From sequence record OR455461.1: a stretch of 64,000 nucleotides of DNA, one strand, 5' to 3'. The notes beneath the pieces are model-generated. The model was given only the letters and a program-made list of their open reading frames with translations, was not told the origin of the DNA and made no database searches. Shown here piece by piece: positions 463-58,177 of the stretch. Positions within the stretch are counted from its first letter, which is position 1. Every line of letters begins with the position of its first letter. Position numbers and translations under genes: made by a program. This stretch comes from Staphylococcus phage AH12.

Positions 463-1686
463 TTACTTAACTATAATTAAATTCTTTTTAGCACGAGTAA
501 TTGCAGTATATAATGATTTGTATCTATCTTTAGAATAATTTTCATCGAATACAATAACGTTATCAAATTCAGATCCTTGAGATTTATGAACAGTTATTCC
601 ATAAGCATAATTAAAAGGATTAACTTTCATACTAAAATTACTCATAGTGGTTACATAACGTTTTTTAAAGATCTTATTAATTTCATTATCTGTCTTTCTT
701 AATTCAAATAATTCTTGTTGATCTCTAATAGTTCCATTGAAAATTAAATCATCATAATATATTCTACTAAATCTTTCATCTTTAAAACCAACAGGTTTAA
801 AATCTAATTGTGTTGAAGCAGTAAAACTATTTTTCTTACCGGATCTTGTTATTTCTCCAATTAAACCATTTGTAAGATATTGATTTATATTTCCTTCAGT
901 AATAACTTTATTCCAGTTATTTTTTAAACAAATAATTTTTTCTCCTGATTTAGGGAAAGGATTTGATTCAATGTCAATTCCTTCAACTTGACTTCTATAG
1001 AAGCTATTAAATTGATTAACTGTTTTATTATAACTCATAAGAACTTGATCTGCATTTTTATACATATCTATTGTTAAATCATTTGAATTTATTACTTGTA
1101 AATTATCTCCATAAGAACCATATTCAATATCTTCTCCTTTACGGACTTCATTAGCCATTTTAAGAATAGGATTATCTAATGCCTGTCTAACAGGTTCATC
1201 TAAGAATATGTCTGGATTTTCTATTAATGAATTAGTACCAAATACTGGTGTCAATTGAGATTTATCTCCACAAACTAATATAGGTATTTCAAATTGTTTA
1301 ATCTCTTCAATCATTTTATCAGGAACCATAGATATTTCATCAATGATTATTAATTTAATTTCAGGATTAAATTCTTCTTTAGTTTTTAAAACAAATCTAA
1401 CTTCACCTGTTTTTTCATCTACGAAAGGATTATAGATAGTTCTATGAATGGTAGTAGCGTTTATACCTCTCTTAACTAATACTCCTGCTGCCATACCTGT
1501 ATATGCTATAAATGATACTTGAGATTCATGTAATCCTAAAGTATCTATTATTTTAGTCATCAAATAACTTTTACCACTTCCAGCAATTCCTGCTAAAACA
1601 AAAGGTCTTGATGTATCATTATTCCACCAGTACTTAGCTTTCATTAATCCTTCTTCTTGTTTTTTATTTAATCCCATGAAATTCAT
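463..1686 (-). CDS. SF1 DNA helicase, Dda/RecD-like
   Basis: Walker A GIAGSGKSY, DEISMV Walker B-like, and the C-terminal YAITVHKSQGSEFDNVIVF motif typical of RecD/Dda-family helicases. Confidence 0.8.
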   Translation of the reverse strand: MNFMGLNKKQEEGLMKAKYWWNNDTSRPFVLAGIAGSGKSYLMTKIIDTLGLHESQVSFIAYTGMAAGVLVKRGINATTIHRTIYNPFVDEKTGEVRFVLKTKEEFNPEIKLIIIDEISMVPDKMIEEIKQFEIPILVCGDKSQLTPVFGTNSLIENPDIFLDEPVRQALDNPILKMANEVRKGEDIEYGSYGDNLQVINSNDLTIDMYKNADQVLMSYNKTVNQFNSFYRSQVEGIDIESNPFPKSGEKIICLKNNWNKVITEGNINQYLTNGLIGEITRSGKKNSFTASTQLDFKPVGFKDERFSRIYYDDLIFNGTIRDQQELFELRKTDNEINKIFKKRYVTTMSNFSMKVNPFNYAYGITVHKSQGSEFDNVIVFDENYSKDRYKSLYTAITRAKKNLIIVK

Positions 1687-1840
1687 ACACCTCGATTATT
1701 TTTGTAAATTATTCACTTTATATTTTAATAATTATTGGTTAAGTCAGTTTAATAATTTTTTCTTTATAAAAAATTTGAAATCCACCACAATATATTATTT
1801 ATATATTTGTAAATAATAGATTTTTTATTAATTAATAAAT

Positions 1841-1890
1841 ATATTATAAAAAATAATAGTAATTAAAAATGTTATTAAAAATTAAGTAAT
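1841..1890. promoter_or_regulatory. conserved 50-bp intergenic element, copy 1
   Basis: ATATTATAAAAAATAATAGTAATTAAAAATGTTATTAAAAATTAAGTAAT, with an internal direct repeat of ATTAAAAAT. Lies in the divergent region between the helicase gene and gene 2051. Confidence 0.45.
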
Positions 1891-2050
1891 TAAAATTAAA
1901 GAAAAATTCATATAAATAAACTTAATTTGGATCATAGAAAAAATTAAAAATTCCAACTAATATTTTAAATATATATTATTTTAATGAGATTAGGTTAAAT
2001 ACTAATTTCAAATATATAAAAATATGTAAAATATAAGGAGAGAATATGGT

Positions 2051-2983
2051 ATGGCAATTACAAGAAGAAAAGTAACTAATGAGACTAAGGATTTAAGTGT
2101 ATTGGAATCAGCAGAATTAAAAGTAAGTGAAGAACAAGGTTATAAAGGTGATGTATTAACTTTTGAAATTGAAACAGTTCCAAAAGAATATGATAGAAAG
2201 AATTTAGTATTAATTCCAGAAGATGATAATGTAATTAAAATTAATTACAATAAGAATGAAATTAATATTGCTTCTGATGAATTAAAAGATGTAAGTATCA
2301 AATTAAAGGATATTCCAACAGATACAGAATATGATAATGTAACTATTACAGCTTCAGGAATTAATCCTGATAAAGAAAAAGAAATTAAAGAGGAAAAAGA
2401 AGAAAAAGAAGTTAAAGAAGAAAAAGTAGAAGAAGTTAAGAATCCAGTTAAAAAGAAACCTAGTACAAAAACTAAAACTAAAACAAATAAAAAGGATGAT
2501 AATAAAATGGAAAAAATTAAAGTTAATCGAGTTAAAAAAGACGTTAAGAAAACTGCTAAAAAGGAATACAGTGATAAATCATACACTAAAGATGAATTGT
2601 TAAATGATTTATTAACGAATCTTGTAGATGAATCAGGAGATGCTGCATACAGTAAGAAAGAATTAAAAGATATTATAACATTAGCAGATTCATTACGTAC
2701 ATCAGCTTTAAAAGATGGTAAAACAATTTCAATTAATAACATCAACTTTACACGTAAATTACAAAAAGCTCGTATTCATGCACCTAAATTAGATACAGTT
2801 AAATCACCTTCATATGTAACTCCACATGTAGTTATGCAAGCTAAAGTTGAATCTGATGATAAAAAAGTATTAAAAGGTGAGAAATTATCTGCTGATAAAT
2901 TTAAAACAGTAGATGGTGAAGAAATCGATTTAAATAAAGTTAATGAAGAGTATGAAAAAGAGTTTAAAAATAAATTTCAATAA
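2051..2983 (+). CDS. Lys/Glu-rich hypothetical protein, 310 aa
   Basis: AGGAG RBS about 10 nt upstream of the ATG. Contains a KEEKEEKE charged low-complexity segment. First gene of a divergent plus-strand unit. Confidence 0.6.
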   Translation: MAITRRKVTNETKDLSVLESAELKVSEEQGYKGDVLTFEIETVPKEYDRKNLVLIPEDDNVIKINYNKNEINIASDELKDVSIKLKDIPTDTEYDNVTITASGINPDKEKEIKEEKEEKEVKEEKVEEVKNPVKKKPSTKTKTKTNKKDDNKMEKIKVNRVKKDVKKTAKKEYSDKSYTKDELLNDLLTNLVDESGDAAYSKKELKDIITLADSLRTSALKDGKTISINNINFTRKLQKARIHAPKLDTVKSPSYVTPHVVMQAKVESDDKKVLKGEKLSADKFKTVDGEEIDLNKVNEEYEKEFKNKFQ

Positions 2984-2995: not shown

Positions 2996-3658
2996 ATGAT
3001 ATTAATGAAGCATTTTTACAATAAAAAAAGAAGTATTAATATTAATATAGAAAATTTATATTTAAATCATATTGATGTAATTAAACGTTACGATTTTGGT
3101 GATGAAGAATTACATCAAATGATTGATAGATTTTTACCTCAAGTAATTGAAGAATCTTATGAGTTTAATATTGAAATGTATAATTTATTAAAGACTGATA
3201 ATATTAAAGAACGCTATGAATTAACTTCATTAGCTTCTCTTGAATTATTAGATATAATTCTTTATTTCGTTTCTATAAATTCTACTTTAATTGAGAAGTA
3301 TAATTTAGAATACAAATATGTAATAGAGTTGAATGATTTAAATTTCAGTAAAGACTTTGTATTAAATACAGGTGAAAAAGTTAATGATGATAAATTCTAT
3401 CAAACAATAATTGATTCTGTAAGTAAAACAGTAGTTAATAACGGTGGTCATATAAGAAGATTAACTCCTAATAGAAAATATCATCAAGAGAATAAAGAAG
3501 TTAGTAAAAAAGAAATGAATCATATTATTGGTACTATTTTCTTTATTAATCATAGAACAATAGATTTCTTATTAACTGTATTATTTGAAAAACTATCTTT
3601 AGAAAAAGATGTAGATCCAATATTAGATAAAATTCAAGAAGTAGTTAAAAATAAATAA
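2996..3658 (+). CDS. hypothetical protein, 220 aa
   Basis: ORF track entry in the same operon as 2051..2983, followed by a strong terminator. Confidence 0.55.
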   Translation: MILMKHFYNKKRSININIENLYLNHIDVIKRYDFGDEELHQMIDRFLPQVIEESYEFNIEMYNLLKTDNIKERYELTSLASLELLDIILYFVSINSTLIEKYNLEYKYVIELNDLNFSKDFVLNTGEKVNDDKFYQTIIDSVSKTVVNNGGHIRRLTPNRKYHQENKEVSKKEMNHIIGTIFFINHRTIDFLLTVLFEKLSLEKDVDPILDKIQEVVKNK

Positions 3659-3663
3659 TTATT

Positions 3664-3737
3664 TTCCCTAACACTTATATTCCTTAAATGGAGTATTTGT
3701 GTTAGGGAAATTTTTGTTTTTTTTTTGTAAATTATTA
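3664..3737 (+). terminator. rho-independent terminator
   Basis: 11-bp stem TTCCCTAACAC / GTGTTAGGGAA followed by a long T-run. Confidence 0.65.
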
Positions 3738-3787: not shown

Positions 3788-6700
3788 GTGGTGAAATTAA
3801 AAGTAATGGATAATAATAAAAAGAATATAAAGAGACTAGAGAAAAATAACAATTCAGAGATAATTAAAAATGCTTCTAAAAATACTAGTCGTATTCTTTT
3901 CAATGCATTTATTAAATCAAATCCAGCACTAGATAGTGTTATTGGTTCTGATGGATTAAATTTAATGAATCAAGAAGAAAGAAGAATTAAAAATGTTTCT
4001 GAAATTAAATCTTCTACTAAGAATTTAATAAAAAGTATTAAATCTAGTTCAGAAGAAAATGATATATTTTCAGAAGAAAGTGAAAAACTATCAAATTCTA
4101 AACCTGAGTATGAGACAGTTACTGAAATAATTGATAATGATGATGGTACAAAATCTGAAATAATAAACGTTTCAGATAAAAAGAAATCTAGTCTAGTAAA
4201 TTCACCTTTAATTGCTTTTAATAATCTCGCTACGATTAACCAAAAAGGTTTTACAGGAACTAATATAGCTTTAAGAAATTTAGCGGTATCAAATGAAGCT
4301 ACAAGTACTTTAATGAATTCAGCAGTATTGAATTTAGAATCAATACAGAATTCTATATATCAAAATACTTTACTTGAAGAAAACACTAAAAGAGGAAAAC
4401 AGAGTAAATTATTTGAAATAGTTAATGGTAATATAAGTTTATTAAAATATTTAGACAATAAAACAAATATTGAAAATAATTCAATGATAAGTATGTTAGG
4501 TGGTTCTGAAGGACTTAAGAATATATTAATGGGATTTGCAAAAAATCCTATTGAATTAGCATTAACTACAGGTGCTCAAATGGGCATGAAGAAATTAATG
4601 TATGGAAGTACTTCAGGATATGATCCAGATGATGTTGAAAATAAAGGTATATTTAGTAGACTTAATAGAAAATTTGATCCTAATAATTTAGGTTCTTTAT
4701 TAGTAAGTGAACTGACTGATGATGAAGGAAGAATATCAAATACCCTAGATAAACTTAAAGGTAATGATAATAAATATATTTCTAATTTAGGAGAAGCACT
4801 TAATAAGAGAATCGGAAATTTAAAAGATAATGTTTTAAGTGATGGAACAATATCAACTAAGAATAAAAGAGATAAAAATACTCCAGTTCAATTTGATAGA
4901 GAAAGTCATACTTCTATTAATAAAGCTATACCAGATCTTTTATCTAGATTACAAGGTAATCTAATTGCTAGAAGAGAAGGAAAATCTAATGGTTTAGTTA
5001 ATAATAGCGAATTAGGTAGTATATATAACTATTCTAAAGGAACTTGGGATAGTAGAGGGAATAATAGAAAAAATATAAATGACAAATTAAAAGAAAAATC
5101 ATTATTTAATTTTAAAGATACTAAGTTAGGAAAAGATTTATCTAATAATGGTATTGAAGATGAAGAAGTTAAAGACATCTTATTCTCTTTAAGTAAAATT
5201 AATAAACCAGTAAAAAATAAAGATGAATTATCTAAATATACTAAAGATATAAATTATTCAGATATTGTTGAAAATATTTTCAATAATGATATATCTAAAT
5301 TTAATATTGATCTTTTTAATATTAAGAAATCAATAGGTACTGAGTATAACAAGATTGATAAAGATGGTTCATCATTAATGACATTTACAGATATTAAAGG
5401 TTTAAAAAGAAGAAATAATGAAGTTCAATCAAGTTCTGCTAGAGTAAATAAAATTAATGAAGTTAAAGATTATTCTAATATCGAATGGAAGAATGATGAT
5501 CTTGATGAACTTAAAAAATTATTCTTAGAAATAGAAAGTAAATTAGATGATATTAACCCAGAAAATATAAGCAATAATAAAGATTATGTAAATGATAAAA
5601 TAGGAAGAATTAATAGTATTATAGATTCTTCTAGTAAGTTTAATTTACCTAGCTATTTATCTAATGAAAAAACAAAATCAGTTCAAGACAAATTAGGTAA
5701 ACTATCAAACTCCGTTAATAAATTTAATGATATACGTAAAGATCCTTCATCTATTTTAAAAGGAAACACTTATAATGATAATAATAATGAAGATCTTAAT
5801 TCTGGGATCATAGATAATAACTATACAGATAATCATCCTTTAATGAATTTAATAAATAATATTAAAGGAAAACAGAGTAATAATAAAGTTGATTTAAATA
5901 AAGAACCAACTAAAAGCATTGATGATTTATCTAGAGAAGAAAAGCAATCTAAAGCTAGAAAGTATCTTGAAAATATAATTAGCACTGCTTATCCTAAGCA
6001 AAGTAAAACTATGATAAATGACATGAATCAATCTGATGATAATAAAAAATTAGATGAAATGAAAAAAGGTTTATCAACTGCAAATGCTGCTGAAACTGGT
6101 GAAGATGTTATATCAAAATTATCAGGATCTAGTAAAACAAAAGTTGCTGAAGATTTAAGAGGAACTCTTAAATTTGGTTCTGGTGGAGCTGCTGAAAAAG
6201 AAATGGGTACTAAAAAATTAATGAATTCAATGTTAGATTTTAGTAAACCAGGAACAATTGCCTTTGCAGGACTATCCGCTACTGTTTTAGCTAAATTAAT
6301 GAACGGTAAAAAGAAAAAAGATCAAGAAAAAGGTCTAATGGGTAGCGTTGGAACAGGATTAGGTTTCTTAGGTAAAGCTGGATTAATGTTAGGTGGAGGA
6401 GTTTTAGCTGCTAAATTCTTACCTAAACTCTTAGGTAAATTTTTACCTAAAGGTGCTATGAATATGTTTGATACAATTAAAAATTTACCTGGAAAATTAA
6501 AAGGAACTTTTGGTAAAGTTTTTGATGCCGGTAAAAATTTCTTCGGTAAAGGTAAAAACCTAATTGGAAAAGGATTAGGATTAGGTAAAAATATATTCGG
6601 TAAAGGAATTAAGTTAGGTAAAAATATCTTAGGAAAAGGTGCTCAATTAGGAAAATCTTTAATGGGTAAAGGATCTTTAGGATTAATTAAAGATGGTTTC

Positions 6701-9700
6701 GGTAAAGGTGCTTCTATAGCTAAAAGTGGATTTAATAAATTATTTAATCTTGGTGGTAAAAATTCTTTTGCAACTAAAGGTCTTCCTAAATCAGGTGGGA
6801 TTTTAGGAAAAGGATTAAGTAAAGCTGGTTCCATCGGTAAAGGTCTATTTAGCTCTATGAAAAATGGTGGTAAAAAAGCATTAGGTTTCTTAGGTAAAGC
6901 TAAAAATAAATTATTCAGTAAAGGCGGTATGAAAGCTGCTGGAAAATTTGCTTTAAAAGCTGGTCTAAAAACAGCATTACCTTTTATACCTGTTGTTGGA
7001 CCTATTATAGGTGCTGCAATGTGGGCACCAGATATTGTTAAAACTATAAAACACCCTATTGAATCTCTTAAACATCCAATTAAAACTTTAGGAAGCTTTT
7101 TCGGATTGTCTAAGCATCCAGGAGATACTCTTGAGGCTAAACAAAAAGAAGAAAAAGAAAATGAAGATGAAACAGGTTTAGGAAGATTAATATTATCTAC
7201 TTCTAAAATGATGTTTAGATCATCTCCTTTATTCCCAATTTCCAAAGTTGGAGGAGATATGTTTAAAACAATAACTGATAATAAAATGAAGTCAGGTCCT
7301 AAAGCTGAAGAAGAAATACAAGAAAATATGTTCTATGATACTCCTTTAGGTAGCCTATATCAAATGGCTAAAGGTGGTATAGATTTCTCTACTAAAGGTG
7401 GAGGAGAAATTGGCGACTGGTTTGCTAGATTTTTAGTTAAAATGGAAGGCATGGTTGTGGCTATGTCTAAAATGAAGAATTCTAGTTCAGGAGGAGATTC
7501 ATCTTCGTCTTCATCAGATAGTGGTAGTGGACAATTACAAGGTAATGAAATTGAAATAGATAAAAATGCACCTTCTATTACATCACAATCTGTATTGAGT
7601 AAAATACCTGATAATGCTGCAGGTGCTTGGATTAAGAAACATCAATTCTGGCAACCTTTCGGTAACTATCAAGGACTATCATTTAATGGTAGTTCAAAAC
7701 ACTGGGGTATTGATATTGGTATGCCTACAGGAACAGATATATTGGCTATTGTACCTGGTACAGTAAGTAATATAATTAAAGATGTTGGTGGAGGTAATAT
7801 CGTTGAGGTCAAAAACGGTAGTATCTACACTTGGTATATGCATAATAGTAAAATAATTGCTAAAAAAGGTGATAAAGTAGGAGTAGGTCAAAAAATTGCC
7901 ATATCTGGTAATACAGGTGCTCAAACTACTGCACCACATATGCACTTCCAGGTCATGAAAGGAAGACCTTCAAATGAAACTGCGATTGATCCAGCACCTT
8001 ATGTATTTGCTAAGGTAAAAGGTAAAGGTTCAGATGATGATGACAAGAGCAGTTCTAAAGGTGGAAGTAGTAAAAAAGGTGAAAAAGATAAAGGTGGAGG
8101 ACATTCACTAATAGGTGATATGAATTCTGTATCTATGCAAAGACAACTTAAGAAGAAAAATATTCAAGATATGCAGAATAAGAGAAAAGAAATTGCTCAA
8201 CAAAAGAGAGATCAAGATAAAATTGATACACAAATAAATAGAATTAATAAGCAAGATGATTATAAAGTTAAAGAAAAAGCTAAAAAAGTAAATAAAGTAT
8301 TTAATGCAATTAAAGAAAGTAAAGAGAAAAAACAAACTGGAATATTAAGATCATCAAATCAATTTAATAAAATTTTGATTATAGGTGATGAAATAACTAA
8401 AGATGCTTCAAATGATCTTAGAATTAAAATTAAAGGTGCTAAAATAGAAGCTTCTGTAGGAAAACAATATTCTGGTGGATCTGAATCTGGTAGAAGAATA
8501 TTACAAAATAATATTGATGAGTATAACAGAACCGGTGTAGCAATAGTTATCCAATTAGGTTTAAACGGAGGATTATCTACAGGAGAAATATCAGAAATAC
8601 AGAATATGTATGATAAAGCTAATGTATATTTCGTTAATACTTATTTCAATAGTAATAAAAATGGTACTAGTTTAGATTTAACTGATTTAATGAATGCAGT
8701 CAATGAATCAATTAATGCTAGTGCAGCTAATATAATTGACTGGTTTAGCAAAGCTAATTCTGTTTTAGTTAAAGAAGATGGATATATGCCAACAAATAAA
8801 GGTAGAATGATATTAGTAGATTTAATAAAAATGTATGTAAATCCTTATATTGGTGGTGGCGGTGCTTCTGATGATAAAAAAGCAGAAGAAAAAATTGATA
8901 AAGAAGTAGAAAAAGAAAAATCTAAAGCTGATAAAAAAGATAATAAAGATGAAGATGAAAAAGGATCTGAATCTAAAGTTTCTAAAGATGAAGATGGAGA
9001 ATCTTCTGATAGTGATAGTTCTGATTCTTCTTCAGGTGCCGGAGAGTACAGTTTCAAAAATGGTACTTGGTATGGCTCTATTACTGGTAGAGATGATAGA
9101 CGAATGGATGAAGAAGAGCAAGAAGAGCTTAATGATCGTTTAATGAAACGTTATGCTAAAATCTATGGAATTGACTATGAAGAAGCTAAGAAAATAGATA
9201 AGGAACAACAAGAAGAACTTAAAGCTAAAGCAGGTAAAGAAGCTACAGAATCTGGTTCTTCAAGTGGATCAAGTTCATCTAAAGATGGAGATGATAAAGA
9301 TTCAGGATCTTCTGCAAGTTCTTCTAAAGACAAAGCTAAAGAAAATATCGAAAAAGCAGGAAGTCAAATTTCCAAATTAGGTAATGGTTTCCAATTACCT
9401 ACATTAGAGAATAGTGGTTTTTCTAATACTAATAAAACAACACAAAATAATCAAGGCGATACAAGTAATAGTACAACAAATAATAATTATAATCAAGGTC
9501 AAGAAAGCACTGTTAATAATACTGATGTGAAACAAGAATTTGTAAAAGGTAAAAATAAAACTACAAATCATTATAATAAAATTGTAAATAATTATAAAAA
9601 TTCAACTGTGACTAATGGTAATACAGATTATGTATATGATTATGAGCAATATTGGTATTCAGATGACCTCGTTAAAATGTTGTCAAATATAGATAGAAAT

Positions 9701-9751
9701 ACATTAGCTTCTACTAAAGAATTAGATAGACTTTTAGAAGAATTAAAATAA
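3788..9751 (+). CDS. giant multidomain virion protein, 1987 aa, with M23 peptidase domain; tape-measure-like or ejection-protein-like
   Basis: M23/LytM signature HWGIDIG...HMHFQ, encoded about 7620..7975. Gly/Lys 11-aa tandem repeats. HPIESLKHPIKTLGSF module and a C-terminal acidic module, both shared with the next gene. GTG start at 3788; the ATG at 3806 with a GGTGGTGA RBS is an alternative start. Confidence 0.75.
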   Translation: MVKLKVMDNNKKNIKRLEKNNNSEIIKNASKNTSRILFNAFIKSNPALDSVIGSDGLNLMNQEERRIKNVSEIKSSTKNLIKSIKSSSEENDIFSEESEKLSNSKPEYETVTEIIDNDDGTKSEIINVSDKKKSSLVNSPLIAFNNLATINQKGFTGTNIALRNLAVSNEATSTLMNSAVLNLESIQNSIYQNTLLEENTKRGKQSKLFEIVNGNISLLKYLDNKTNIENNSMISMLGGSEGLKNILMGFAKNPIELALTTGAQMGMKKLMYGSTSGYDPDDVENKGIFSRLNRKFDPNNLGSLLVSELTDDEGRISNTLDKLKGNDNKYISNLGEALNKRIGNLKDNVLSDGTISTKNKRDKNTPVQFDRESHTSINKAIPDLLSRLQGNLIARREGKSNGLVNNSELGSIYNYSKGTWDSRGNNRKNINDKLKEKSLFNFKDTKLGKDLSNNGIEDEEVKDILFSLSKINKPVKNKDELSKYTKDINYSDIVENIFNNDISKFNIDLFNIKKSIGTEYNKIDKDGSSLMTFTDIKGLKRRNNEVQSSSARVNKINEVKDYSNIEWKNDDLDELKKLFLEIESKLDDINPENISNNKDYVNDKIGRINSIIDSSSKFNLPSYLSNEKTKSVQDKLGKLSNSVNKFNDIRKDPSSILKGNTYNDNNNEDLNSGIIDNNYTDNHPLMNLINNIKGKQSNNKVDLNKEPTKSIDDLSREEKQSKARKYLENIISTAYPKQSKTMINDMNQSDDNKKLDEMKKGLSTANAAETGEDVISKLSGSSKTKVAEDLRGTLKFGSGGAAEKEMGTKKLMNSMLDFSKPGTIAFAGLSATVLAKLMNGKKKKDQEKGLMGSVGTGLGFLGKAGLMLGGGVLAAKFLPKLLGKFLPKGAMNMFDTIKNLPGKLKGTFGKVFDAGKNFFGKGKNLIGKGLGLGKNIFGKGIKLGKNILGKGAQLGKSLMGKGSLGLIKDGFGKGASIAKSGFNKLFNLGGKNSFATKGLPKSGGILGKGLSKAGSIGKGLFSSMKNGGKKALGFLGKAKNKLFSKGGMKAAGKFALKAGLKTALPFIPVVGPIIGAAMWAPDIVKTIKHPIESLKHPIKTLGSFFGLSKHPGDTLEAKQKEEKENEDETGLGRLILSTSKMMFRSSPLFPISKVGGDMFKTITDNKMKSGPKAEEEIQENMFYDTPLGSLYQMAKGGIDFSTKGGGEIGDWFARFLVKMEGMVVAMSKMKNSSSGGDSSSSSSDSGSGQLQGNEIEIDKNAPSITSQSVLSKIPDNAAGAWIKKHQFWQPFGNYQGLSFNGSSKHWGIDIGMPTGTDILAIVPGTVSNIIKDVGGGNIVEVKNGSIYTWYMHNSKIIAKKGDKVGVGQKIAISGNTGAQTTAPHMHFQVMKGRPSNETAIDPAPYVFAKVKGKGSDDDDKSSSKGGSSKKGEKDKGGGHSLIGDMNSVSMQRQLKKKNIQDMQNKRKEIAQQKRDQDKIDTQINRINKQDDYKVKEKAKKVNKVFNAIKESKEKKQTGILRSSNQFNKILIIGDEITKDASNDLRIKIKGAKIEASVGKQYSGGSESGRRILQNNIDEYNRTGVAIVIQLGLNGGLSTGEISEIQNMYDKANVYFVNTYFNSNKNGTSLDLTDLMNAVNESINASAANIIDWFSKANSVLVKEDGYMPTNKGRMILVDLIKMYVNPYIGGGGASDDKKAEEKIDKEVEKEKSKADKKDNKDEDEKGSESKVSKDEDGESSDSDSSDSSSGAGEYSFKNGTWYGSITGRDDRRMDEEEQEELNDRLMKRYAKIYGIDYEEAKKIDKEQQEELKAKAGKEATESGSSSGSSSSKDGDDKDSGSSASSSKDKAKENIEKAGSQISKLGNGFQLPTLENSGFSNTNKTTQNNQGDTSNSTTNNNYNQGQESTVNNTDVKQEFVKGKNKTTNHYNKIVNNYKNSTVTNGNTDYVYDYEQYWYSDDLVKMLSNIDRNTLASTKELDRLLEELK
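6523..6900 (+). repeat. in-frame tandem repeats, 33 nt (11 aa), consensus L-G-K-N-I-x-G-K-G
   Basis: Visible periodicity, e.g. ttcggtaaaggaattaagttaggtaaaaatatc / ttaggaaaaggtgctcaattaggaaaatcttta. Coding, so not a CRISPR array. Confidence 0.6.
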
Positions 9752-9772: not shown

Positions 9773-12700
9773 TTGGCTAAAGATAAATTTAATACTAAGA
9801 AATTAGAAAGAGAGTTCAATAGGAACTCTTCTTCTAATTCTTCTAGAAAATATATTGATAATGAATTCAAAAAGAATTTAAATAGTATGAAATCAAACAA
9901 CATGAAAAAACTTATTGATAACAATAATCCTTTAAAAGCTATCAAAGAAGTTAAAGATAATAGAAAAGAACAATTTAAGAAATTAACTGAAACTGGAAAA
10001 GATTTGTCTAAAGAAGCTCTTAAAAGTACTAAAAGAACTTTAAAAACTGGTGAAACAATCATAGATAAAGAAGCTTTAAGTAAATCATCTAATTTAGATG
10101 GTGGAACAATGGGCATGGGCGATGATTTTGATTTCAGTAGCTTTGATGATCTTGATATGGGTGATGAAAATCTAGATAATGATGAAGTAGGAGATTTTTC
10201 TTTCGATGATTTTGATGAAGAAGAAAGTAATAAATCTGAAGTAATTTCATCAACAACAATAGTTAGTGATAATTCATCTTCAGCTAAATCTTCTGCTCTT
10301 TTAACTTCTTCTATATCTAATTTATCTCAAATTAATGCCACAGGTTTTAATAATTTGATGGAAACTCTTCATTATATGAGAGAAACTAATGATAATGTTA
10401 GAACGGATTTATTTGAAGGATTAACAGGTTTAATCAAAACTAGTAATGATATTAGAAGTAATACAACCGTAAAAAATATAAGTGAAATTAAAAATAGCAA
10501 TTCTTTAGAAGATTTGTTCTTATCTAATATAACTCTTTCTAATATATTAAGTGGTAGTAAAGAAACTGGTTTTAAAGATAAAGCTAAAGACTTTGCTAAA
10601 AAACAAGGTATTGAATTAATTAAAGATGTTATTGGGAGTAGGTCTAAAGGTATACAAGGTGGACTTTTAGATAGTGCTAAAGGCAAAGCTTTTGATATAC
10701 TAAACAGTGACAAACTTAGTGAAAAGCTAACAAATATGTCAACAGTATTTACTAAAGATGAAGATAAAAAAGGTAAGAAGAAAACCAATCGTGATTTCAT
10801 AGATAAACAGAAAAGCAAACTTATAGATAAATTATTTAATAATATAGATGGTGGAATTTCAACAGCAAATAAAAAGAATAAAAATGAAAAAGTAGCTTTT
10901 GATGTTGAAACCCATAGTACTATTAATACAGTTATTCCTGGTTATTTATCTAAAATAGTTGGTTTAACTTCTGAAGATGGTCAAGAAATTCACTATGATT
11001 ATGATTCAGGTTCATTTAAAACTTCTAAATCTATTAATGATGAAATTAAAAAATCTATAGATAGTACTATTGAAAGTTCTGAATTCTTCAAGAGAGTTGA
11101 AAGTAAAGCTAAAGATAAAAATATAGACTCTAAAGATTATAAATCATTAGTAAAGAATATTATTAGTGAAAATGTTAATAGTTCTAAAGATAGTGATAAA
11201 GTTAAAACTAAGTCATCTAATGTAAATAGTCTTTTAGAAGAGCTATTTGAAGATAAAGAAGTAAAAACTAGTTTAACTAAAGCTAGAATGCAATTGAATC
11301 AAAAATCTAAATCAATTAGAAAAAATCTTGGCGGAAGTACTATAAATGCAGTTAATGATAAAGGTCAAAAACCTAAGTCATATGCTTCTAAAGGTAACAA
11401 TGAATTTTCTGACATTAATTTTAATATTATCAATAGCGATATAAGTGAAATTAAAAATATTGTATCTAGAATAAATGATAAACTAGATGTAAGAAAAAAT
11501 AATCAACAATCTTCACAAAATGATAATAATAATATTGTATCTGGAGATAGTCAAAAACAAGATAGTAAATTTGATGAAATTAAAGAAAAATTGGATGATA
11601 TTAAAGATACTAAGTCTTCTAATTCTAATAATTCTTCTAATTCTAATAATGGAAATAATTTAAATAATAGAGATGAACAAAAATCTACTTTGATTCCAGA
11701 TAGTAATGAAGCTCATGCTTCTGAAGTAAGCAGACAACAAGAAGAAAAAGAAGATAATCCATTAAAAGATGAAATTAAAGATAAAATAGAAGAAAAAGCT
11801 AAAGATAAAATTAAAGATATTGATAAAGATAAACTTAAAAGAAAAGTATTAGATAGTAAAATGGCTAATACTAAAATTGGTAAAAGTGTTATAGGTGCTG
11901 GTGAATCACTTGCCGGTAAATTTGCTGCTGGTGGAGCTTTGTTATCTGGTGCTGGAAGAGGATTACGTTCTAAACTAAGAAATAAAGCTAAAGGTAAATT
12001 TGGTGCAAGTAAAGTTGGAAGTAAATTAATGGGATCTAGAGTTGGTAAAGGTATAGCTAAAGCTGGTTTGAAAGTAGGTTCAAGAGTAGGACTAGCTGCA
12101 ACTGGTGTAGGATTACCTTTATCTATACTATTGTCTGCTCCTGAAATAATGAGTACTATAGCACATCCGATTGAATCTCTTAAACATCCAATTAAAACTT
12201 TAGGAAGCTTTATAGGTTTTAATGATCACCCTGCAAAACAGAAAAAAGAACAAGAAAAATTAGATTCAGAACAACCTAATGGTGAAAATGCTAAATTTAG
12301 TGTTGATCCTTTAATTGATTCTAAATTAACTGGTGATAAAGATAGTTCTTCATTAATTGGAAGTTTTATTAAAGACAATCCTTTATTAGCTCAAGTTCCT
12401 TTAATGGGATTAGCTGGAGTTGGACTTTATAAAGGAATTGTAAAACCTGCTTTCGGTCTAGGTATGAATATGGTACAGAAAACTACTGGAATGGCTAAAG
12501 GATTTGGTGATTCTACTGATAGTATGATGGAAGAAAAATCTGGCGGTTTTGGTGGTTTAATTAAAAAAGCTGTAGGTGGAGCTTCAATGTTATTAATGGC
12601 ACCTTTAGCTATGGCTGGAAAAGGAATTAGTAACATGGTAGGAGCTACTTCTAATCTTATTCAAGGTGGAATAGGCTTAGCTAAAAACTTATCAGGATTC

Positions 12701-15523
12701 CTTGATGACAAATTTTCTTCTCATGAAGAAGATATGTCTAATCAAAGTCGTGAAATGGTAGAAGCTAGTAAAGAAGAATTAGGTTCTTATCAAGAAGGTA
12801 TTGAAGATCATGCATCTGAAAGAGCTAAAAAAGAAATGGCTGAAATGCAAGGAATGTCTGATAAAGCTAGTAAAGATGCTAAAAAACAAGTAGAAGATTC
12901 AACTAATAAAACTAAAGATAGTATCGAGAAAGATGTTAATGGAGTGATGAAAAATTCTCCTTTATCTATCATGGGTAAAATTAGTGAAAAAATGCATAAA
13001 ATGATGCCTAATAATTTAATGAGTAAACTTAAAAAAGCTCCTAAAAAATTGGCTGAAACTATGTTAAGATTATCTCCTTTCTATTCTTTATTAAGTAAAA
13101 AGAAAAAGAAAAAATCTAAAAAAGATATAACTGATCCTGATGGTGAAGTAGTAAACAAAATTGGTGATTGGTTTGATAAACTTGGCGGAATGATGAACGA
13201 TATTATGGCAGGATTCATGGCCGGTTCATCAGGAAGTTCTTCTTCAGAAGGATCATCTGATGGAGGAGCAGAAAGTGTTGATGGTAAAGATGTTGCATCT
13301 AAAGTATGGAATTTCTTTGCTGAAAAGGGGTTAGAAGATCATCAAATAGCAGGTATATTAGGTAACTTTGAACGTGAATCCAAAATGGATCCTGGTGCTG
13401 AACAAAACTCTGGATGGGTTGGAGGTAAAGGGCTAGCTCAATGGGATGACCGTAAAGATAATCTTAAAGCATTTGCTGAAAAGAAAGGTAAGAAATGGTC
13501 TGACCTTGATGCTCAGTTAGACTTCATGTGGTATGAACTTCAAGGATCTGAATCTGCTGCTTGGTCTGCTATTAAGAAAGCTAAAAATGTTGATGAAGCA
13601 ACAGTTGTATGGGAGAATTTATATGAACGTGCAGGAGTTAAAGTTATTCCTGAAAGACAATCAAACGCTAAAAAATGGTTAGATAAACTAGGGGGTTCAT
13701 CTAAGAAATCCACTAAAGCTAAAGGTGGAGGTTCTAGTACTGTTTATAGTGATACGAACGTTAATCAATTTGCAAATATGGTATCATCTACATCTAATAA
13801 AAATAAAAAAGTTGGAAAAACTGGTTTAGTTTTAGAAAAACCTACTATTACTGGTGGAGTTTATGGTAAAGGTGGAGGTGGAGGATCCGGTGGATCTGAA
13901 AAAGATAAAATTAAACAAGCTGTACAATGGGCAATAGCTCAAGACGGTGCAACATACTCTCAGTCAAATAGACAAGGTAAAAATTCATTTGACTGTTCTA
14001 GTTTAATTGCTCGTTCATTTAAAAAAGCTGGTTTAGAAATGGATATTAATGCTACCACTTTTACTTTTAGAGATGGTGGTACTAAATTTAGAAAAATAAG
14101 TAAAGGTACTAAGAAAAAAATTGGTGATATTACTTTATGTGATAACGATAACCATGTTACTATGTATATAGGTGGAGGAAAACAAGTTGAATCATATTAT
14201 GGTCATGGTGTTGCTGTAACTCCTGCAAATAAATACCAAAAAATGGGATTACAAATTGGTATTACAATGAGATATGGCGGCGGTGGTCCTGATGATACAG
14301 GCAAACCTCTAGATGGTAGTGATAAAATAGGTGGAAGCGATAATGAAGGAGGAGACTCTAACGGTTCTTCTGCTGGAGCTTCTGAATATAGTTTCAAAAA
14401 TGGTACTTGGTACGGTTCTATTACTGGTAGAGATGATAACCGTATGGATGAAGAAGAACAAGAAGCTTTAAATGATAGATTAATGAAACGTTATGCTAGA
14501 ATTTATGGAATTGACTATGAAGAAGCTAAGAAAATAGATGAAGAACAACAGGCTGAACTTAAAGCTAAAGCAGGTAAGGAAGCTACTGAATCTGGAGCTT
14601 CAAGTGGATCAAGTTCATCATCTGACGGTTCAGAAGGGTCATCTGGCAAAGATGGTTCTGATGGAAAAGATGGTAAAGACGGTTCATCACCTTCATATAG
14701 TTCTGGAGCTGATGGTGACAATCAATCATCTTCAGGAAGTCAAGGAAATGTTAATAATAACCAAAATAATTCTAGTATAATTAATAATGGAGGAAACAAT
14801 AGTTCTACGGTTATTAATAATAATTATAATAATGGTAAGCCTACAACTAATAATAACTCTATTACAAATCAAACTATACAAGGCAACAATAATACAGTAA
14901 GAAATATCTATAATATTACTAATAATTATAATAATTCTAAAGTAAATTATGAAAATAAAGGACCTATGAAAGTAGATCCACAAAAACGTATGGATTTAGA
15001 TAATATAATTAAACATACAAGTAATATTGATAAAAATACTGCCAAAATGTTAGAACAACTTAAAGATATGTCCTTTAAAGGTAAAAATATTAATAAAGAT
15101 GGAAATACAACAAATATTTCTAATACTATTATTAATAATAAAGGTGATTTAGTAGATTCTAAAGGTAATGTAATTATTAAAGATATTCAAAAAGAGCTTG
15201 AAAAAATTATTAAAGAAAATCCTAATATTATTAATAATGGTTCTAATGGTCAAAATGGTTCTAATGGATCTAATGGTTCTAATGGAAATAGTAACAATAA
15301 TAATGGAAATGATAATCAATCAAATCCTAATAATCCTAATGATCCAAACAATTCTAATAATCCAAATAATCCTAATGATCCAAATAATCCTTATACTCCT
15401 GATGGTTCAAGTCAAGATCCATCTACAGGTAATCAGGATTTACAAGAAGCAATTAGAGATTCTTATGGAGATAGATTTGTTATTGACGTTAGACCAGCTA
15501 TACCTGTTTTCTCAGGAAAATAA
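9773..15523 (+). CDS. giant multidomain virion protein, 1916 aa, with tail-lysozyme-like and NlpC/P60 domains; paralog of the preceding gene
   Basis: TTG start with a GGTGAG RBS. GILGNFERES...AQWD lysozyme-like block about 13290..13690. DCSSLIARSF...DNDNHVTMYIGG Cys/His NlpC/P60-type block about 13900..14270. Shares an EYSFKNGTWYGSITGRDD...KAKAGKEATESG module and an HPIESLKHPIKTLGSF module with gene 3788..9751. Confidence 0.75.
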   Translation: MAKDKFNTKKLEREFNRNSSSNSSRKYIDNEFKKNLNSMKSNNMKKLIDNNNPLKAIKEVKDNRKEQFKKLTETGKDLSKEALKSTKRTLKTGETIIDKEALSKSSNLDGGTMGMGDDFDFSSFDDLDMGDENLDNDEVGDFSFDDFDEEESNKSEVISSTTIVSDNSSSAKSSALLTSSISNLSQINATGFNNLMETLHYMRETNDNVRTDLFEGLTGLIKTSNDIRSNTTVKNISEIKNSNSLEDLFLSNITLSNILSGSKETGFKDKAKDFAKKQGIELIKDVIGSRSKGIQGGLLDSAKGKAFDILNSDKLSEKLTNMSTVFTKDEDKKGKKKTNRDFIDKQKSKLIDKLFNNIDGGISTANKKNKNEKVAFDVETHSTINTVIPGYLSKIVGLTSEDGQEIHYDYDSGSFKTSKSINDEIKKSIDSTIESSEFFKRVESKAKDKNIDSKDYKSLVKNIISENVNSSKDSDKVKTKSSNVNSLLEELFEDKEVKTSLTKARMQLNQKSKSIRKNLGGSTINAVNDKGQKPKSYASKGNNEFSDINFNIINSDISEIKNIVSRINDKLDVRKNNQQSSQNDNNNIVSGDSQKQDSKFDEIKEKLDDIKDTKSSNSNNSSNSNNGNNLNNRDEQKSTLIPDSNEAHASEVSRQQEEKEDNPLKDEIKDKIEEKAKDKIKDIDKDKLKRKVLDSKMANTKIGKSVIGAGESLAGKFAAGGALLSGAGRGLRSKLRNKAKGKFGASKVGSKLMGSRVGKGIAKAGLKVGSRVGLAATGVGLPLSILLSAPEIMSTIAHPIESLKHPIKTLGSFIGFNDHPAKQKKEQEKLDSEQPNGENAKFSVDPLIDSKLTGDKDSSSLIGSFIKDNPLLAQVPLMGLAGVGLYKGIVKPAFGLGMNMVQKTTGMAKGFGDSTDSMMEEKSGGFGGLIKKAVGGASMLLMAPLAMAGKGISNMVGATSNLIQGGIGLAKNLSGFLDDKFSSHEEDMSNQSREMVEASKEELGSYQEGIEDHASERAKKEMAEMQGMSDKASKDAKKQVEDSTNKTKDSIEKDVNGVMKNSPLSIMGKISEKMHKMMPNNLMSKLKKAPKKLAETMLRLSPFYSLLSKKKKKKSKKDITDPDGEVVNKIGDWFDKLGGMMNDIMAGFMAGSSGSSSSEGSSDGGAESVDGKDVASKVWNFFAEKGLEDHQIAGILGNFERESKMDPGAEQNSGWVGGKGLAQWDDRKDNLKAFAEKKGKKWSDLDAQLDFMWYELQGSESAAWSAIKKAKNVDEATVVWENLYERAGVKVIPERQSNAKKWLDKLGGSSKKSTKAKGGGSSTVYSDTNVNQFANMVSSTSNKNKKVGKTGLVLEKPTITGGVYGKGGGGGSGGSEKDKIKQAVQWAIAQDGATYSQSNRQGKNSFDCSSLIARSFKKAGLEMDINATTFTFRDGGTKFRKISKGTKKKIGDITLCDNDNHVTMYIGGGKQVESYYGHGVAVTPANKYQKMGLQIGITMRYGGGGPDDTGKPLDGSDKIGGSDNEGGDSNGSSAGASEYSFKNGTWYGSITGRDDNRMDEEEQEALNDRLMKRYARIYGIDYEEAKKIDEEQQAELKAKAGKEATESGASSGSSSSSDGSEGSSGKDGSDGKDGKDGSSPSYSSGADGDNQSSSGSQGNVNNNQNNSSIINNGGNNSSTVINNNYNNGKPTTNNNSITNQTIQGNNNTVRNIYNITNNYNNSKVNYENKGPMKVDPQKRMDLDNIIKHTSNIDKNTAKMLEQLKDMSFKGKNINKDGNTTNISNTIINNKGDLVDSKGNVIIKDIQKELEKIIKENPNIINNGSNGQNGSNGSNGSNGNSNNNNGNDNQSNPNNPNDPNNSNNPNNPNDPNNPYTPDGSSQDPSTGNQDLQEAIRDSYGDRFVIDVRPAIPVFSGK
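15232..15400 (+). repeat. coding micro-tandem repeats (NGS x n; NPNNPND x n)
   Basis: Repeats of aatggttct and aatcctaat(gat) at the 3' end of the gene. Confidence 0.5.
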
Positions 15524-19304: not shown

Positions 19305-19343
19305 TCCCCTAACACATTTATTTGTGTTAGGGGATTTTTATTG
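19305..19343 (+). terminator. rho-independent terminator
   Basis: Stem ATCCCCTAACACA / TGTGTTAGGGGAT followed by a T-run. Confidence 0.65.
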
Positions 19344-19349
19344 CTAAAA

Positions 19350-20156
19350 TTATTTAATATCTCCGTTACCTGAACCTGTAATTCCACCTTTGTTATAATC
19401 AAAGTCAGAAAGCTGAGCTCCTGCTTCTTTAGGTGCATTAGGATCAAACATACCTTGTTCAACGAAGCTGTATACTTCTTTAAGTTTAGACTTAGCGAAG
19501 TCATTTACACGAGCAGAGATTTCCATATTACCTGCGAAATCTTGTTCAATTTGAACTTCTTCGTGAGTTTCCATAGTATAGTTATGGTGATCAATGCTAA
19601 TACGAGTAGGCATAACAGCTGTATAGTAAGCAGCAAATTCAATATTATTTTTACTAGTGTTATTAGCATCAGGACGAGTTTGGATGTATAGTAATTCTCC
19701 TGTATGGTTCTTAGCAGCATATTCTAAGTTATGAATCTTAGGATAAGTAGCAATACCAGTACGAGGATCACGGATACCAGATACCCAATATTGATACATA
19801 TTTTTAATTGGACTACCAGAGAATTCTTGGTGAGTCATTTGGAAACCAGTGTTCCCTTTAGTGATAGACGCAGCAGTACGATAGTTATTACCGTTAAATG
19901 TATGCATATAATCATTTGTAGTTAATTCAATATTTTCTAAACCTTGGAATGATTTAAAGTTCTTTTGAGTCATAGCTTTAAATCCAGGGAATTGTTTTTC
20001 AACCCATGAAGGAACTTTAGTCCATACGATAAAGCTGTAACCAGTTACGAACGGATCAAACTCAAGAGTTTGTAAGTTCATATGGCCATTGTAGAACCAT
20101 TTATTTTTAGCGATGTTATTATCAAATACACGCTGATTCTTACTTGGTAAAATCAT
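19350..20156 (-). CDS. putative tail tube protein, 268 aa
   Basis: Lies immediately downstream of the sheath gene on the same strand, which is the usual sheath-then-tube order. Assignment is by position only. Confidence 0.45.
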   Translation of the reverse strand: MILPSKNQRVFDNNIAKNKWFYNGHMNLQTLEFDPFVTGYSFIVWTKVPSWVEKQFPGFKAMTQKNFKSFQGLENIELTTNDYMHTFNGNNYRTAASITKGNTGFQMTHQEFSGSPIKNMYQYWVSGIRDPRTGIATYPKIHNLEYAAKNHTGELLYIQTRPDANNTSKNNIEFAAYYTAVMPTRISIDHHNYTMETHEEVQIEQDFAGNMEISARVNDFAKSKLKEVYSFVEQGMFDPNAPKEAGAQLSDFDYNKGGITGSGNGDIK

Positions 20157-27494: not shown

Positions 27495-27656
27495 CATTTA
27501 TATTAACTATATGAAATTCATATAGATTAGACTATATCTTATACTATTAATAAGTATTATTATATTTAGTCGTTGAACAATCATCTTGATTGATGCTGAT
27601 TAAGTTTATAAACTTTTCCAGCAATTAATATTATTTATACTGAGCCATTAAAATTA
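27495..27656 (-). ncRNA. group I intron, 162 nt, ORF-less, in nrdE
   Basis: P AAUUGCUGGAAA, Q AAUCAGCAUC, R GUUCAACGACUAAAUAU and S AGAUAUAGUCU elements are present. P1 pairs exon CUGGGU with the guide sequence GCUCAG. P5, P6, P8 and P9 hairpins are present. The spliced junction YVNQLG|QRNGAGALYL matches the conserved RNR alpha region. Confidence 0.8.
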
Positions 27657-28403
27657 ACCCAGTTGATTTACATATGATAAAGTATCTTCAAATACTTTCA
27701 TAACTGGAACTACTCCTGAAGCAGCACCTTCAACACCTTTAATTGGATCATTATCAGCACGTAGATTACTTAAAGATACTCCTATTCCTCCACCACGTTT
27801 ACTTAATTGTGCCACATTAGAGATATTTCTATAAATAGATGATAAAGAATCCTCCATAGTTAATAAGAAACAACTTACTAACTCACCAGAACGTACTCTA
27901 CCTGCATTAAGAAATGTAGGTGTAGCTGGTTGGAAAGTACCTGTAATAATTTCATTAGCAATATCTCTAGCTAATTCTTCATCACCGTCAGCTAAGTATA
28001 AAGCTACAAATAAAATTCTATCTTCATATAGTTCTAATAAGATTTCCCCTGCATCATCTTTCATTGCATACTGTTCATAGAATTTTTTAGCTCCTAATAA
28101 ACGAGTAAAACGATGTTTATAAGCCATTAATTCTTTCATTAATCCTTTAATAAATTCAAAATTATAGTTATTGATCATATCTCCATCAATATAATCATTA
28201 TTAACTAAGTAATTAATTTTTTCCTTATATGTTTTAAAATATCTTACATTCTTATTAACTTTTTCATCGAAGTATTTACTAACAGAAGCTAACTCAAATT
28301 CTAGATCTAAATTACCGTCTTTTAATTGTGAACCTCTTGAATTCAATTCATTGTATGAATAATCTTTGAACTTTTCTGAGTTTAAGTCTATTTCTTTTGT
28401 CAT
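27657..28403 (-). CDS. nrdE: ribonucleotide reductase large subunit, exon 1 (N-terminal 249 aa)
   Basis: N-terminal RNR alpha region (ATPTFLNAGR..., GGGIGVSLS). Ends in GGU, directly before the intron-borne UAA. Confidence 0.85.
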
Positions 28404-28846: not shown

Positions 28847-28941
28847 GAAAATCTCTCCATTTAATTATATTTTCTAAATTCGAGGTTTAAAATAGATCCA
28901 TCATAAGTTATCCTTATGATAGATCATTTTAATTCATATAT

Positions 28942-45642: not shown

Positions 45643-46000
45643 TTATTTTTCTTAATATTTAGTTGTTACTTGAGAATTTATATTTTTATCAAATAAAAAT
45701 AATATATTATTATATTTCTATCAAAATATAATAATATATTTATTATGATTTTTAATTTTTTATATTAAAATTGGTATTAATAAATATATTAAATTGAAAA
45801 TCATAATGAAATTCATACAAATAAAATTAACTTAATAATATATTAATGAAGATTATTAAAACTAAAGAAATAAAATATTTATACAAATTTTTTTTGAAAA
45901 CCTCCAGAATATATTATTATATTTTAATATAAAATTATATAAATAATAAATAAATATTTTTTAGGGGAATAATTTTTAAGATTTTCTTTAATTTTAATTA

Positions 46001-46050
46001 ATATTATAAAAAATAATAGTAATTAAAAATATTATTAAAAATTAAGTAAT
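46001..46050. promoter_or_regulatory. conserved 50-bp intergenic element, copy 2 (one mismatch to copy 1)
   Basis: Same 50-mer in the divergent region between genes 43078..45642 (minus) and 46134 (plus). Confidence 0.45.
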
Positions 46051-58169: not shown

Positions 58170-58177
58170 AAATATTT

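Follow-up and report, generated by a model that had tools for sequence, protein, structure and literature searches.

Phage replication origins that combine repeated boxes with an AT-rich unwinding region include the iterons of the lambda origin and the oriL and oriR sites of SPP1, which amount to two copies per genome. The oriF and oriG sites of T4 and the primary origin of T7 are coupled to promoters and are transcribed downstream of the promoter. In phi29, the divergent early/late control region A2c/A2b-A3 carries a nucleoprotein complex of p4 and p6, and in SPO1 the HU-family protein TF1 has sites on hydroxymethyluracil DNA. T4-type phages additionally contain PeSLs, promoter-early stem-loop repeats that mediate the exchange of gene cassettes. 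The subject of this study, a 50-bp element that recurs in divergent intergenic regions of a jumbo Staphylococcus phage, resembles each of these systems in part.

The window, by which we mean the whole 64,000-nt stretch of Staphylococcus phage AH12 (OR455461.1) that was analysed, is 96% identical over its first 20 kb to Staphylococcus phage vB_StaM_PB50 (PB50, 273.7 kb) and phage Machias, and 78–80% identical to the S6/MarsHill/Madawaska/PALS_2/LY01/DC4 group and SA1. These are AR9/PBS1-like jumbo phages, which encode both a virion and a non-virion multisubunit RNA polymerase. Uracil replaces thymine in the DNA of S6, and MarsHill-like phages behave likewise. In AR9, early genes are preceded by the promoter AAATATATATTAT-N6-G, at which the polymerase reportedly does not tolerate even one mismatch, and late genes by AACA-N6-TA/G (PMC5312081). 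In MarsHill, a TATATTAT motif upstream of 29 genes is the one intergenic element that was reported (bioRxiv 10.1101/2020.12.14.422802). Our literature search found no papers on PB50, nor any on replication origins in this phage group.

The initial annotation had pointed out a near-identical pair of 50-bp sequences in the window. This pair was confirmed: the 50-mer ATATTATAAAAAATAATAGTAATTAAAAATGTTATTAAAAATTAAGTAAT at 1841–1890 on the plus strand recurs at 46001–46050 on the same strand with a G/A exchange at 1871/46031 as the sole difference. No further match with up to 3 mismatches occurs within the window, and 100 dinucleotide shuffles of the window contained no match, indicating that none is expected by chance. 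The search for copies was then extended to the whole genome of PB50 (273,701 bp, joined from six pieces), where a Hamming scan and nhmmer returned exactly three copies with E ~1e-6 each, the next match having E = 1.6. The one extra copy is also intergenic and located in a divergent region, and all three copies are present in Machias as well. Many copies scattered inside genes had been named as the pattern that would speak for a selfish repeat. Because none of the three PB50 copies is genic and every one lies in a divergent region, that objection does not apply and a cis-acting site stays plausible. The copies, the intergenic regions that hold them (IGR1, IGR2 and IGR3) and the neighbouring features are collected in Table 1.

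Table 1. Copies of the 50-bp element, their intergenic regions and associated features (positions are those of the window unless PB50 is named)
Feature	Position	Strand	Details
Copy 1	1841..1890	+	Exact pattern match; equals PB50 3186-3235; nhmmer E ~1e-6
Copy 2	46001..46050	+	One mismatch to copy 1 (A at 46031); equals PB50 49965-50014
Copy 3	PB50 170169-170218, outside window	- (inverted)	Hamming scan and nhmmer
IGR1	1687-2050		364 bp, GC 13.2%; between Dda/RecD-like helicase gene 463-1686 (-) and ORF 2051-2983 (+)
IGR2	45643-46133		491 bp, GC 9.4%; between 43078-45642 (-) and 46134-46769 (+)
IGR3	PB50 170055-170384		Divergent; virion structural gene on one side, operon on the other
22-nt core AAAAATAATAGTAATTAAAAAT in copy 1	1849..1870	+	Pattern AAAAATAATAKTAATWAAAAAT
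22-nt core in copy 2	46009..46030	+	Pattern AAAAATAATAKTAATWAAAAAT
3' extension TAAAATTAAAGAAAA	1891..1905	+	In copies 1 and 3, not in copy 2; three-way and local alignments
TTAATTAAT box (palindromic core TTAATTAA)	1828..1836	.	Just upstream of copy 1
TTAATTAAT box	45994..46002	.	Abuts 5' edge of copy 2
IGR1 upstream block (T/A run, GAAA, C-rich, AATATATTAT)	1766..1817	+	Left-flank likeness
IGR2 upstream block (CAAATTTTTTTTGAAAACCTCCAGAATATATTATTATATTTT)	45884..45925	+	Left-flank similarity, copy 2 vs copy 3, p ~0.003
Early promoter AAATATATATTAT-N6-G, gene 2051	1967..1986	+	Perfect match; predicted start G1986, 96 nt downstream of copy 1
Early promoter, gene 46853	46788-46807		Perfect consensus
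Late-type variant AACC-N6-TA, helicase gene	1729..1740	-	Reverse complement of ATTGGTTA block
AR9-type late promoter AACAACTAAATA, 854-aa virion protein gene	45656..45667	-	43 nt upstream of ATG

Both window sites are gene-free, AT-rich and divergent, as had been described from the sequence, and their AT content is extreme on the scale of the genome. The copy-bearing regions are the three lowest-GC intergenic regions of PB50 (9.2, 10.8 and 12.6%), and the three lowest-GC 200-nt intervals of the entire 273,701 bp (6.0, 6.5 and 7.5%) coincide with the copies; these intervals have the minimal duplex stability expected of an iteron/DUE-type origin. Against an origin, extreme AT content is also expected of unconstrained DNA under strong AT mutation bias. 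The lengths of the regions are alike across clades, with ~330–373 nt for IGR1, 454–510 nt for IGR2 and 330–347 nt for IGR3. Since the AR9 counterpart of IGR2, between the g260/g261 pair, measures just 57 bp, a large spacer is no family-wide requirement. At the other divergent switch points of PB50 (~192, 207 and 271 kb) the element is absent. Replication genes adjoin two of the three regions, namely the Dda/RecD-like helicase gene at IGR1 and, at IGR3, an operon that encodes a hypothetical protein, a MazG-like protein, a metallophosphatase and a helicase. Paralogy of the flanking genes was rejected as an explanation for the repeat, because their products belong to unrelated families.

Within the element, the composition is A29 T18 G3 C0, and all three copies are A-rich on the strand of the right-hand gene. 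A 45-nt core, ATAAAAAATAATAGTAATTAAAAATRTTATTAAAAATWAAKTAAT, is common to the three copies, and copies 1 and 3 share the extension TAAAATTAAAGAAA beyond it. The direct repeat noted earlier was found as ATTAAAAAT-GTT-ATTAAAAAT at 1862–1870 and 1874–1882, the two ATTAAAAAT units having a 12-nt spacing. TRF resolved the element into ~2.2 copies of a 27–28-nt unit ending AGTAAT, which describes it better than the short direct repeat alone. In each of the three copies, a TTAATTAAT box adjoins the core on its 5' side. The density of TTAATTAA is 3.9–12 per kb in the three regions compared to 0.63 per kb in other intergenic DNA (6–19 times), and TATTAATTAA is found in 9 of 9 orthologous regions from three clades, with 17 occurrences observed against 1.9 expected. 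Viewed as the initiator boxes of an origin, the repeats (2.2 units of 27–28 nt, two ATTAAAAAT units and flanking TTAATTAA boxes) are few.

The proposal that the flanks are similar too held for one side only. The left flanks share an older, diverged block ~50–90 nt upstream of the element, composed of a T/A run, GAAAA, a C-rich patch and AATATATTAT (copy 1 versus copy 2, local alignment with dinucleotide shuffles, p ~0.01), whereas no significant likeness was found between the right flanks of the two window copies. The IGR1 block carries an 8-bp AT hairpin formed by ATTATTTA at 1794–1801 and TAAATAAT at 1810–1817. This block is kept in IGR1 of MarsHill, LY01 and SA1, and the hairpin arms show a compensatory change (ATTACTTA/TAAGTAAT).

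Functions at the level of RNA or protein found no place for the element. Its predicted folding on both strands was no better than that of shuffles (z = 0.07, 0.69 and 0.24), Rfam and tRNA searches gave no match, and no terminator-like sites were found in the three regions. A structured RNA, an sRNA or a terminator was ruled out by the absence of a fold signal, of an Rfam match and of a tRNA. A small ORF was likewise ruled out, the only frames being AT-driven ones of 20–46 aa, none of which covers the element.

A shared promoter was among the functions initially suggested for the element, a reading that did not survive comparison with the promoters of this phage group. PB50 contains 26 perfect AAATATATATTAT-N6-G early sites, and those at window 1967 and PB50 170231 flank the element without overlapping it. 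The former (1967–1986) is invariant in MarsHill, LY01, SA1 and Machias; the latter stands back-to-back with copy 3. Late AACA-N6-TA sites number 42 in sense and 22 in antisense orientation, many of them before virion genes, and they adjoin the minus-side genes. The AR9 orthologue of the 854-aa virion protein gene is g260, a late gene with an AACA promoter; the virion gene at IGR3 also has a late AACA-N6-TA promoter, and the ATTGGTTA block at the helicase gene is conserved in 5 of 5 aligned IGR1 sequences. The element itself matches neither class. First, in the 13-mer of the early promoter, copy 1 has ATAAATATATTAT, with 2 mismatches, and copies 2 and 3 have at least 4. Second, the position 6 nt downstream, where the start G belongs, is occupied by T, and the nearest G lies 10–11 nt downstream. 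Third, when the genome was scored with a weight matrix derived from the 26 perfect early sites, the element did not reach the top 75. Lastly, as regards the late promoter, the top strand is without C, and on the bottom strand AACA occurs only in copy 1, with the wrong spacing, and is lost in copies 2 and 3. With both promoter classes recognisable and located elsewhere in the same regions, a shared core promoter was rejected. A host sigma-70-type promoter was rejected too, there being no conserved site over the element; sigma-70-type scans of the three regions were uninformative (0 sites against 6.1±2.1 expected, 7 against 9.0±3.1, and 6 against 4.0±2.1).

The promoters nevertheless define the setting of the element. 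In IGR1 it precedes the early start by 96–145 nt and points the same way; in IGR3 it precedes the early start by 32–81 nt and is inverted, with a late promoter 61 nt past its other end. Judged from consensus sites, the element of IGR1 and IGR3 would thus be situated between outward-facing promoters, in DNA that is predicted to be untranscribed. For IGR2, no AACA/AACC-N6-TA site is present on the plus strand between 44300 and 46133. As the search yielded no promoter for gene 46134, transcription may run through copy 2. AR9 g261 is driven from 491 nt upstream; an analogous far-upstream late promoter reading through copy 2 was rejected for want of an AACA/AACC-N6-TA site in this interval.

To trace the element in relatives, we used the 22-nt pattern AAAAATAATAKTAATWAAAAAT, which has 3 exact matches in PB50 and none at 1–2 mismatches. 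It occurs with 0 mismatches in IGR3 of MarsHill and with 1 mismatch in IGR2 of SA1, and local alignment with shuffles identified significant counterparts of the element in the same two regions (p = 0.0025 and p = 0.005, respectively). Extended alignment to SA1 IGR2 gave p = 0.03 for copy 2 and p = 0.005 for copy 3. A lineage-specific insertion, suggested by the seeming absence of the element from MarsHill, LY01 and SA1, was dropped because of these counterparts, and the presence of the core in MarsHill IGR3 and SA1 IGR2 indicates that the element family predates the clade split. The cross-clade core has 2–3 true mismatches in 22, which is only weakly above the ~70% background when post hoc selection is allowed for. 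MarsHill IGR1 and IGR2 have an exact common 27-mer of their own at the equivalent place. Three near-identical copies are confined to the PB50/Machias/window lineage, and the region holding a good core copy differs by lineage.

Three observations bear on why the copies are so similar. First, identity among them drops from 90–98% in the 45-nt core to ~70% in the flanks. Second, the element diverges between close genomes as fast as its spacer: window and PB50 differ at 1/50 and 2/50 positions inside the element and at 11/364 and 12/493 across IGR1 and IGR2, that is, 3 differences per 100 nt inside compared to ~20 per 757 nt outside. Third, window copy 2 follows copy 1 at its 3' end, and copy 2 of PB50 and Machias differs there. 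Together these point to copying between regions and not to unusually strong purifying selection, and we infer from the aligned sequences that ectopic gene conversion, without extra purifying selection, would account for the near-identity of the three copies. A recombination or mosaic boundary at the sites was ruled out, since identity to PB50 is flat at 96–98% across both window sites, with no mosaic boundary, and gene order is collinear in all clades.

We regard the 50-mer as a candidate DNA-level cis element, neither RNA nor core promoter. Its best reading, which we put forward tentatively and from sequence features, is a replication-origin module. The element changes place, orientation and copy number between genomes, yet each genome retains one good copy or more, suggesting that the element acts autonomously and not as part of a particular promoter; the same variability favours an autonomous, origin-like site over a promoter-tied operator. 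Each copy is the centre of one of the three large ultra-AT-rich regions with diverging transcription. In the proposed module, an initiator or an architectural protein would attach to the repeats and the TTAATTAA boxes, and the Bac_DNA_binding (HU/IHF) family protein encoded by PB50 at 94784–95095 may be a candidate for this; the AT-only stretch would serve as the unwinding element; and the back-to-back transcription units would generate negative supercoiling that helps melting. The fuller proposal makes the copies the three origins of a jumbo phage with uracil DNA, their number and location turning over between close relatives by copying among three fixed intergenic "landing pads"; it is possible and slightly more tentative still. 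GC skew was discarded as an origin indicator because it is confounded by gene orientation, which it tracks closely (r = 0.94; residual p = 0.064).

The arrangement of the promoters is also what recommends a regulatory role. The element may be an architectural or regulatory protein-binding site of divergent early/late control regions, where a phage protein on the repeats and TTAATTAA boxes would bend or coat the spacer and tune or switch the back-to-back promoters, a possibility that we hold to be real and somewhat doubtful. In IGR1 and IGR3 the element sits between divergent promoters of different temporal class, in IGR3 it begins only 32 nt upstream of the early start, and it contains direct repeats, while the palindromic boxes at its flanks are over-represented in all nine orthologous regions. 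An HU/IHF-family protein, acting like SPO1 TF1 on modified DNA, or a regulator like p4/p6 of phi29 could conceivably occupy such a site, with similar doubt attached; the gene for the former is present. A site tied to promoters is, however, difficult to reconcile with an element that keeps no fixed distance or orientation to any of them (96–145 nt in IGR1; 32–81 nt and inverted in IGR3). Moreover, all three regions retain their promoters in MarsHill and SA1, but only one region in each of these phages has a good core, and ~24 other early promoters work without the element.

About as possible, and open to comparable doubt, is that the element has no function and is the decayed relic of a duplicated early promoter with its leader, spread among the three weakly homologous spacers by phage recombination. 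Leaving its copies aside, the 50-mer finds its best match in the PB50 genome at an early promoter with leader, and the element aligns better to early promoter-leader segments than to low-GC intergenic controls (p = 8e-5), a likeness driven in part by the 5' edge of copy 1 only; copy 3 is placed back-to-back with a genuine early promoter. The rise in identity from flanks to core, the equal divergence inside and outside the element, the copy-1-type 3' end of window copy 2 and the exact 27-mer in MarsHill speak for such a relic, a UvsX-like recombinase is encoded, and the lowest GC content is the expectation for neutral DNA. Several features resist this explanation. The genome is compact (91% coding) and yet keeps its spacer lengths across clades that are ~25% diverged; the 22-nt core persists in MarsHill and SA1 at 0–1 mismatch to the degenerate pattern; and no decayed copies with 1–2 mismatches are found elsewhere in the genome. 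The likeness to promoters is further weakened by its partial origin in one edge of one copy and by the place of the element outside the top 75 weight-matrix scores.

The element could also be a transcribed leader, or else it or the upstream block (CACA/CAGA-N6-TA) could be an unconventional promoter that starts rightward transcription. We judge this to be unlikely, and no less so the version in which an A-rich, unstructured element in the 5' UTR affects the translation or stability of the right-hand gene. The A-rich strand and lack of structure fit a leader, gene 46134 is without a recognisable promoter, and AR9 5' UTRs reach 491 nt, the orthologue g261 included. However, AACA is near-invariant in AR9 late promoters and the upstream block has CACA or CAGA in its place, the element matches neither promoter class, and canonical promoters lie downstream of it in IGR1 (early, 76 nt) and IGR3 (late, 61 nt), so the genes there need no upstream start.

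A packaging (pac) recognition site for a headful terminase, also raised in the initial annotation, is more unlikely again: MarsHill-like phages are reported to be pac-type and circularly permuted, and at least one good core copy per genome fits a required site, but pac sites usually occur once per genome and close to the terminase genes, whereas the element is present three times, once inverted, and never near those genes (window 31168–33569 and ~38.5 kb). A selfish mobile repeat, whether MITE-like or the target or footprint of a homing endonuclease, is highly improbable even in a genome rich in homing endonucleases and introns, being mostly refuted by copy count (three only, none genic, all in homologous intergenic contexts), by structure (no terminal inverted repeats, target duplications or associated ORF) and by database scans, in which two cores gave only chance matches to unrelated AT-rich viruses with unrelated flanks in IMG/VR and none in metagenomes.

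The finding is a solid and modestly interesting lead and not a surprise. It provides three precise, easily mutated coordinates, which mark the AT minima of the genome and have transcription units diverging on either side, and a 22-nt core that is usable as a probe. If the copies are origins, the AR9/PBS1-like group would gain in them its first defined cis-acting replication determinants. Were the element an origin or an architectural site, it would help the engineering of Staphylococcus phages that are therapeutic candidates and would show cis-sites turning over among a few homologous spacers. If the element is neutral, it documents gene conversion between phage-genome spacers 46 and 120 kb apart.

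Compared with the known systems, the element resembles T4-type PeSLs in that it is a short intergenic repeat akin to early promoters and has several copies per genome that can recombine with one another; it was rejected as a module of this type, having no stem-loop, no functional promoter match, and neither a mosaic boundary nor a change in divergence at the sites, where the profile is flat. Like the AR9/PBS1 early promoter it is AT-only, and copy 1 has a 5' unit (ATAAATATATTAT-AAAAAA-T...AGTAAT) that looks like a promoter followed by the common GxGTAAT leader; unlike that promoter it has at least 2 mismatches in the 13-mer, no start G and a spacing of 10–11 instead of 6 nt. With phi29 and SPO1 it shares an AT-rich spacer between back-to-back early and late promoters, a Gram-positive lytic phage, modified DNA and an HU-family protein, but it differs in having no fixed promoter geometry and in being missing from the corresponding site of relatives whose promoters are retained. 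Unlike the origins of T4 and T7, it seems to be placed upstream of both flanking promoters, and as a candidate origin it has 2–3 repeat units only. Like phage origins, it places short direct repeats beside the most easily melted DNA of the genome, occurs in more than one copy per genome, and is found in promoter-containing intergenic DNA, beside replication genes in two of three cases.

The gap between the RNR alpha exons in the window is just 156 nt (27498-27653), and the corresponding intron in Staphylococcus phage vB_StaM_PB50 contains an HNH endonuclease ORF (PB50 28770-29309). In addition, window 32501-33000 showed no alignment whatever to PB50. Together, the short gap and the unalignable stretch suggest that two phages with 96% identity differ in which intron or homing-endonuclease insertions they carry (presence/absence polymorphism). 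A repeat family with a unit of ~140-160 nt was also observed in the window, adjoining the split RNR, terminase and prohead genes. Boxes in these repeats resemble the P (AATTGCTGAAA), Q (AATCAGCATC), R (GTTCAACGACTAAAT) and S (AAGATATAGTCT) elements of group I intron cores. Compensatory change has occurred in one hairpin internal to the family (CAACTT/AAGTTG vs CGGA/TCCG), and a search of Rfam over the repeat sites at E ≤ 1 matched no family. The repeats probably represent mini group I introns that lack an ORF and escape the Rfam model.

Intron-like repeats and inverted repeats located in the window
Feature	Window coordinates	Strand	Sequence
Intron-like repeat	27498-27663	(-)	
Intron-like repeat	32406-32449 and 32725-32865	(-)	
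Intron-like repeat	38610-38752	(+)	
Intron-like repeat	39051-39180	(+)	
Intron-like repeat	39197-39360	(+)	
Inverted repeat with G+C, then long T run	3647-3726		AAAAATAAATAATTATTTTCCCTAACAC... / ...GTGTTAGGGAAATTTTTGTTTTTTTTTT
Long AT-only inverted repeat in IGR2	arms 45675-45717 and 45724-45766		

The ORF for a 2876-aa tail fibre (49539-58169) is 68-87% identical to PB50 or cannot be aligned, compared to 94-99% for the remaining window, and by sequence comparison window 49500-58500 is a putative host-range mosaic segment. Repeats of 85-104 nt occur inside the same ORF at 54603-55814, and one more copy lies in the next fibre gene at 63412-63496. Two adjacent giant ORFs, 3788-9751 and 9773-15523, whose PB50 annotations are tape measure protein and tail lysin, have two segments in common, one of 255 nt with 87% identity (9025-9279 vs 14365-14619) and one of 88 nt with 81% identity (7020-7107 vs 12132-12219); this sharing suggests that the pair are partial paralogues.

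Predicted early transcripts open with a 5' hairpin, which at window 1986 (feature 1986-2009) has arms GAGATTAG...CTAATTTC and whose counterpart in MarsHill, from another Staphylococcus jumbo phage clade, has the compensatory arm pair GAAGTTAG...TTAACTTC. In PB50, a perfect 24-bp palindrome, GAGTAATATTAATTAATATTACTC (PB50 ~79058-79035, minus strand), lies downstream of the early promoter at 79077. These sequences may form 5' stem-loops that stabilise early mRNAs. The early gene at 2051-2983, beside the first copy of the 50-bp element, encodes a 310-aa product with no family match; 9-nt repeats in the gene (2367-2439) give this product a K/E-rich stretch. The product also has a sub-threshold hit to Pfam Histone (E=0.0038, 17.9 bits; cut-off 26.4), which probably reflects composition and is an artefact. 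Directly after ORF 2996-3658, and before the late promoter of the tape measure gene, lies the inverted repeat with a T run, which looks from its sequence like an intrinsic terminator ending a two-gene early unit. A related sequence, GTGTTAGGGG, occurs at window 19316-19354.

The AT-only inverted repeat in IGR2, the gene-free region around the second copy of the element, is annotated in Machias, a phage of the same lineage, as a bidirectional terminator despite its position between divergent genes. IGR2 also contains a GGGG run at 45964-45967 in surroundings that are otherwise 95% AT, kept in MarsHill and SA1 as GGGGGATT(T)AGGGGG.

Beyond the window, PB50 has a gene for a protein of the HU/IHF family at 94784-95095 (match to Pfam Bac_DNA_binding, E=2e-8), a lone plus-strand gene amid minus-strand genes, with a late-type AACA promoter upstream. 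AT-only sites in uracil DNA are candidate targets of this protein. Its counterpart in the related uracil-DNA jumbo phage AR9, annotated 'DNA binding protein' and taken here as g257 from its place in the source table, shows high expression from 5 min.
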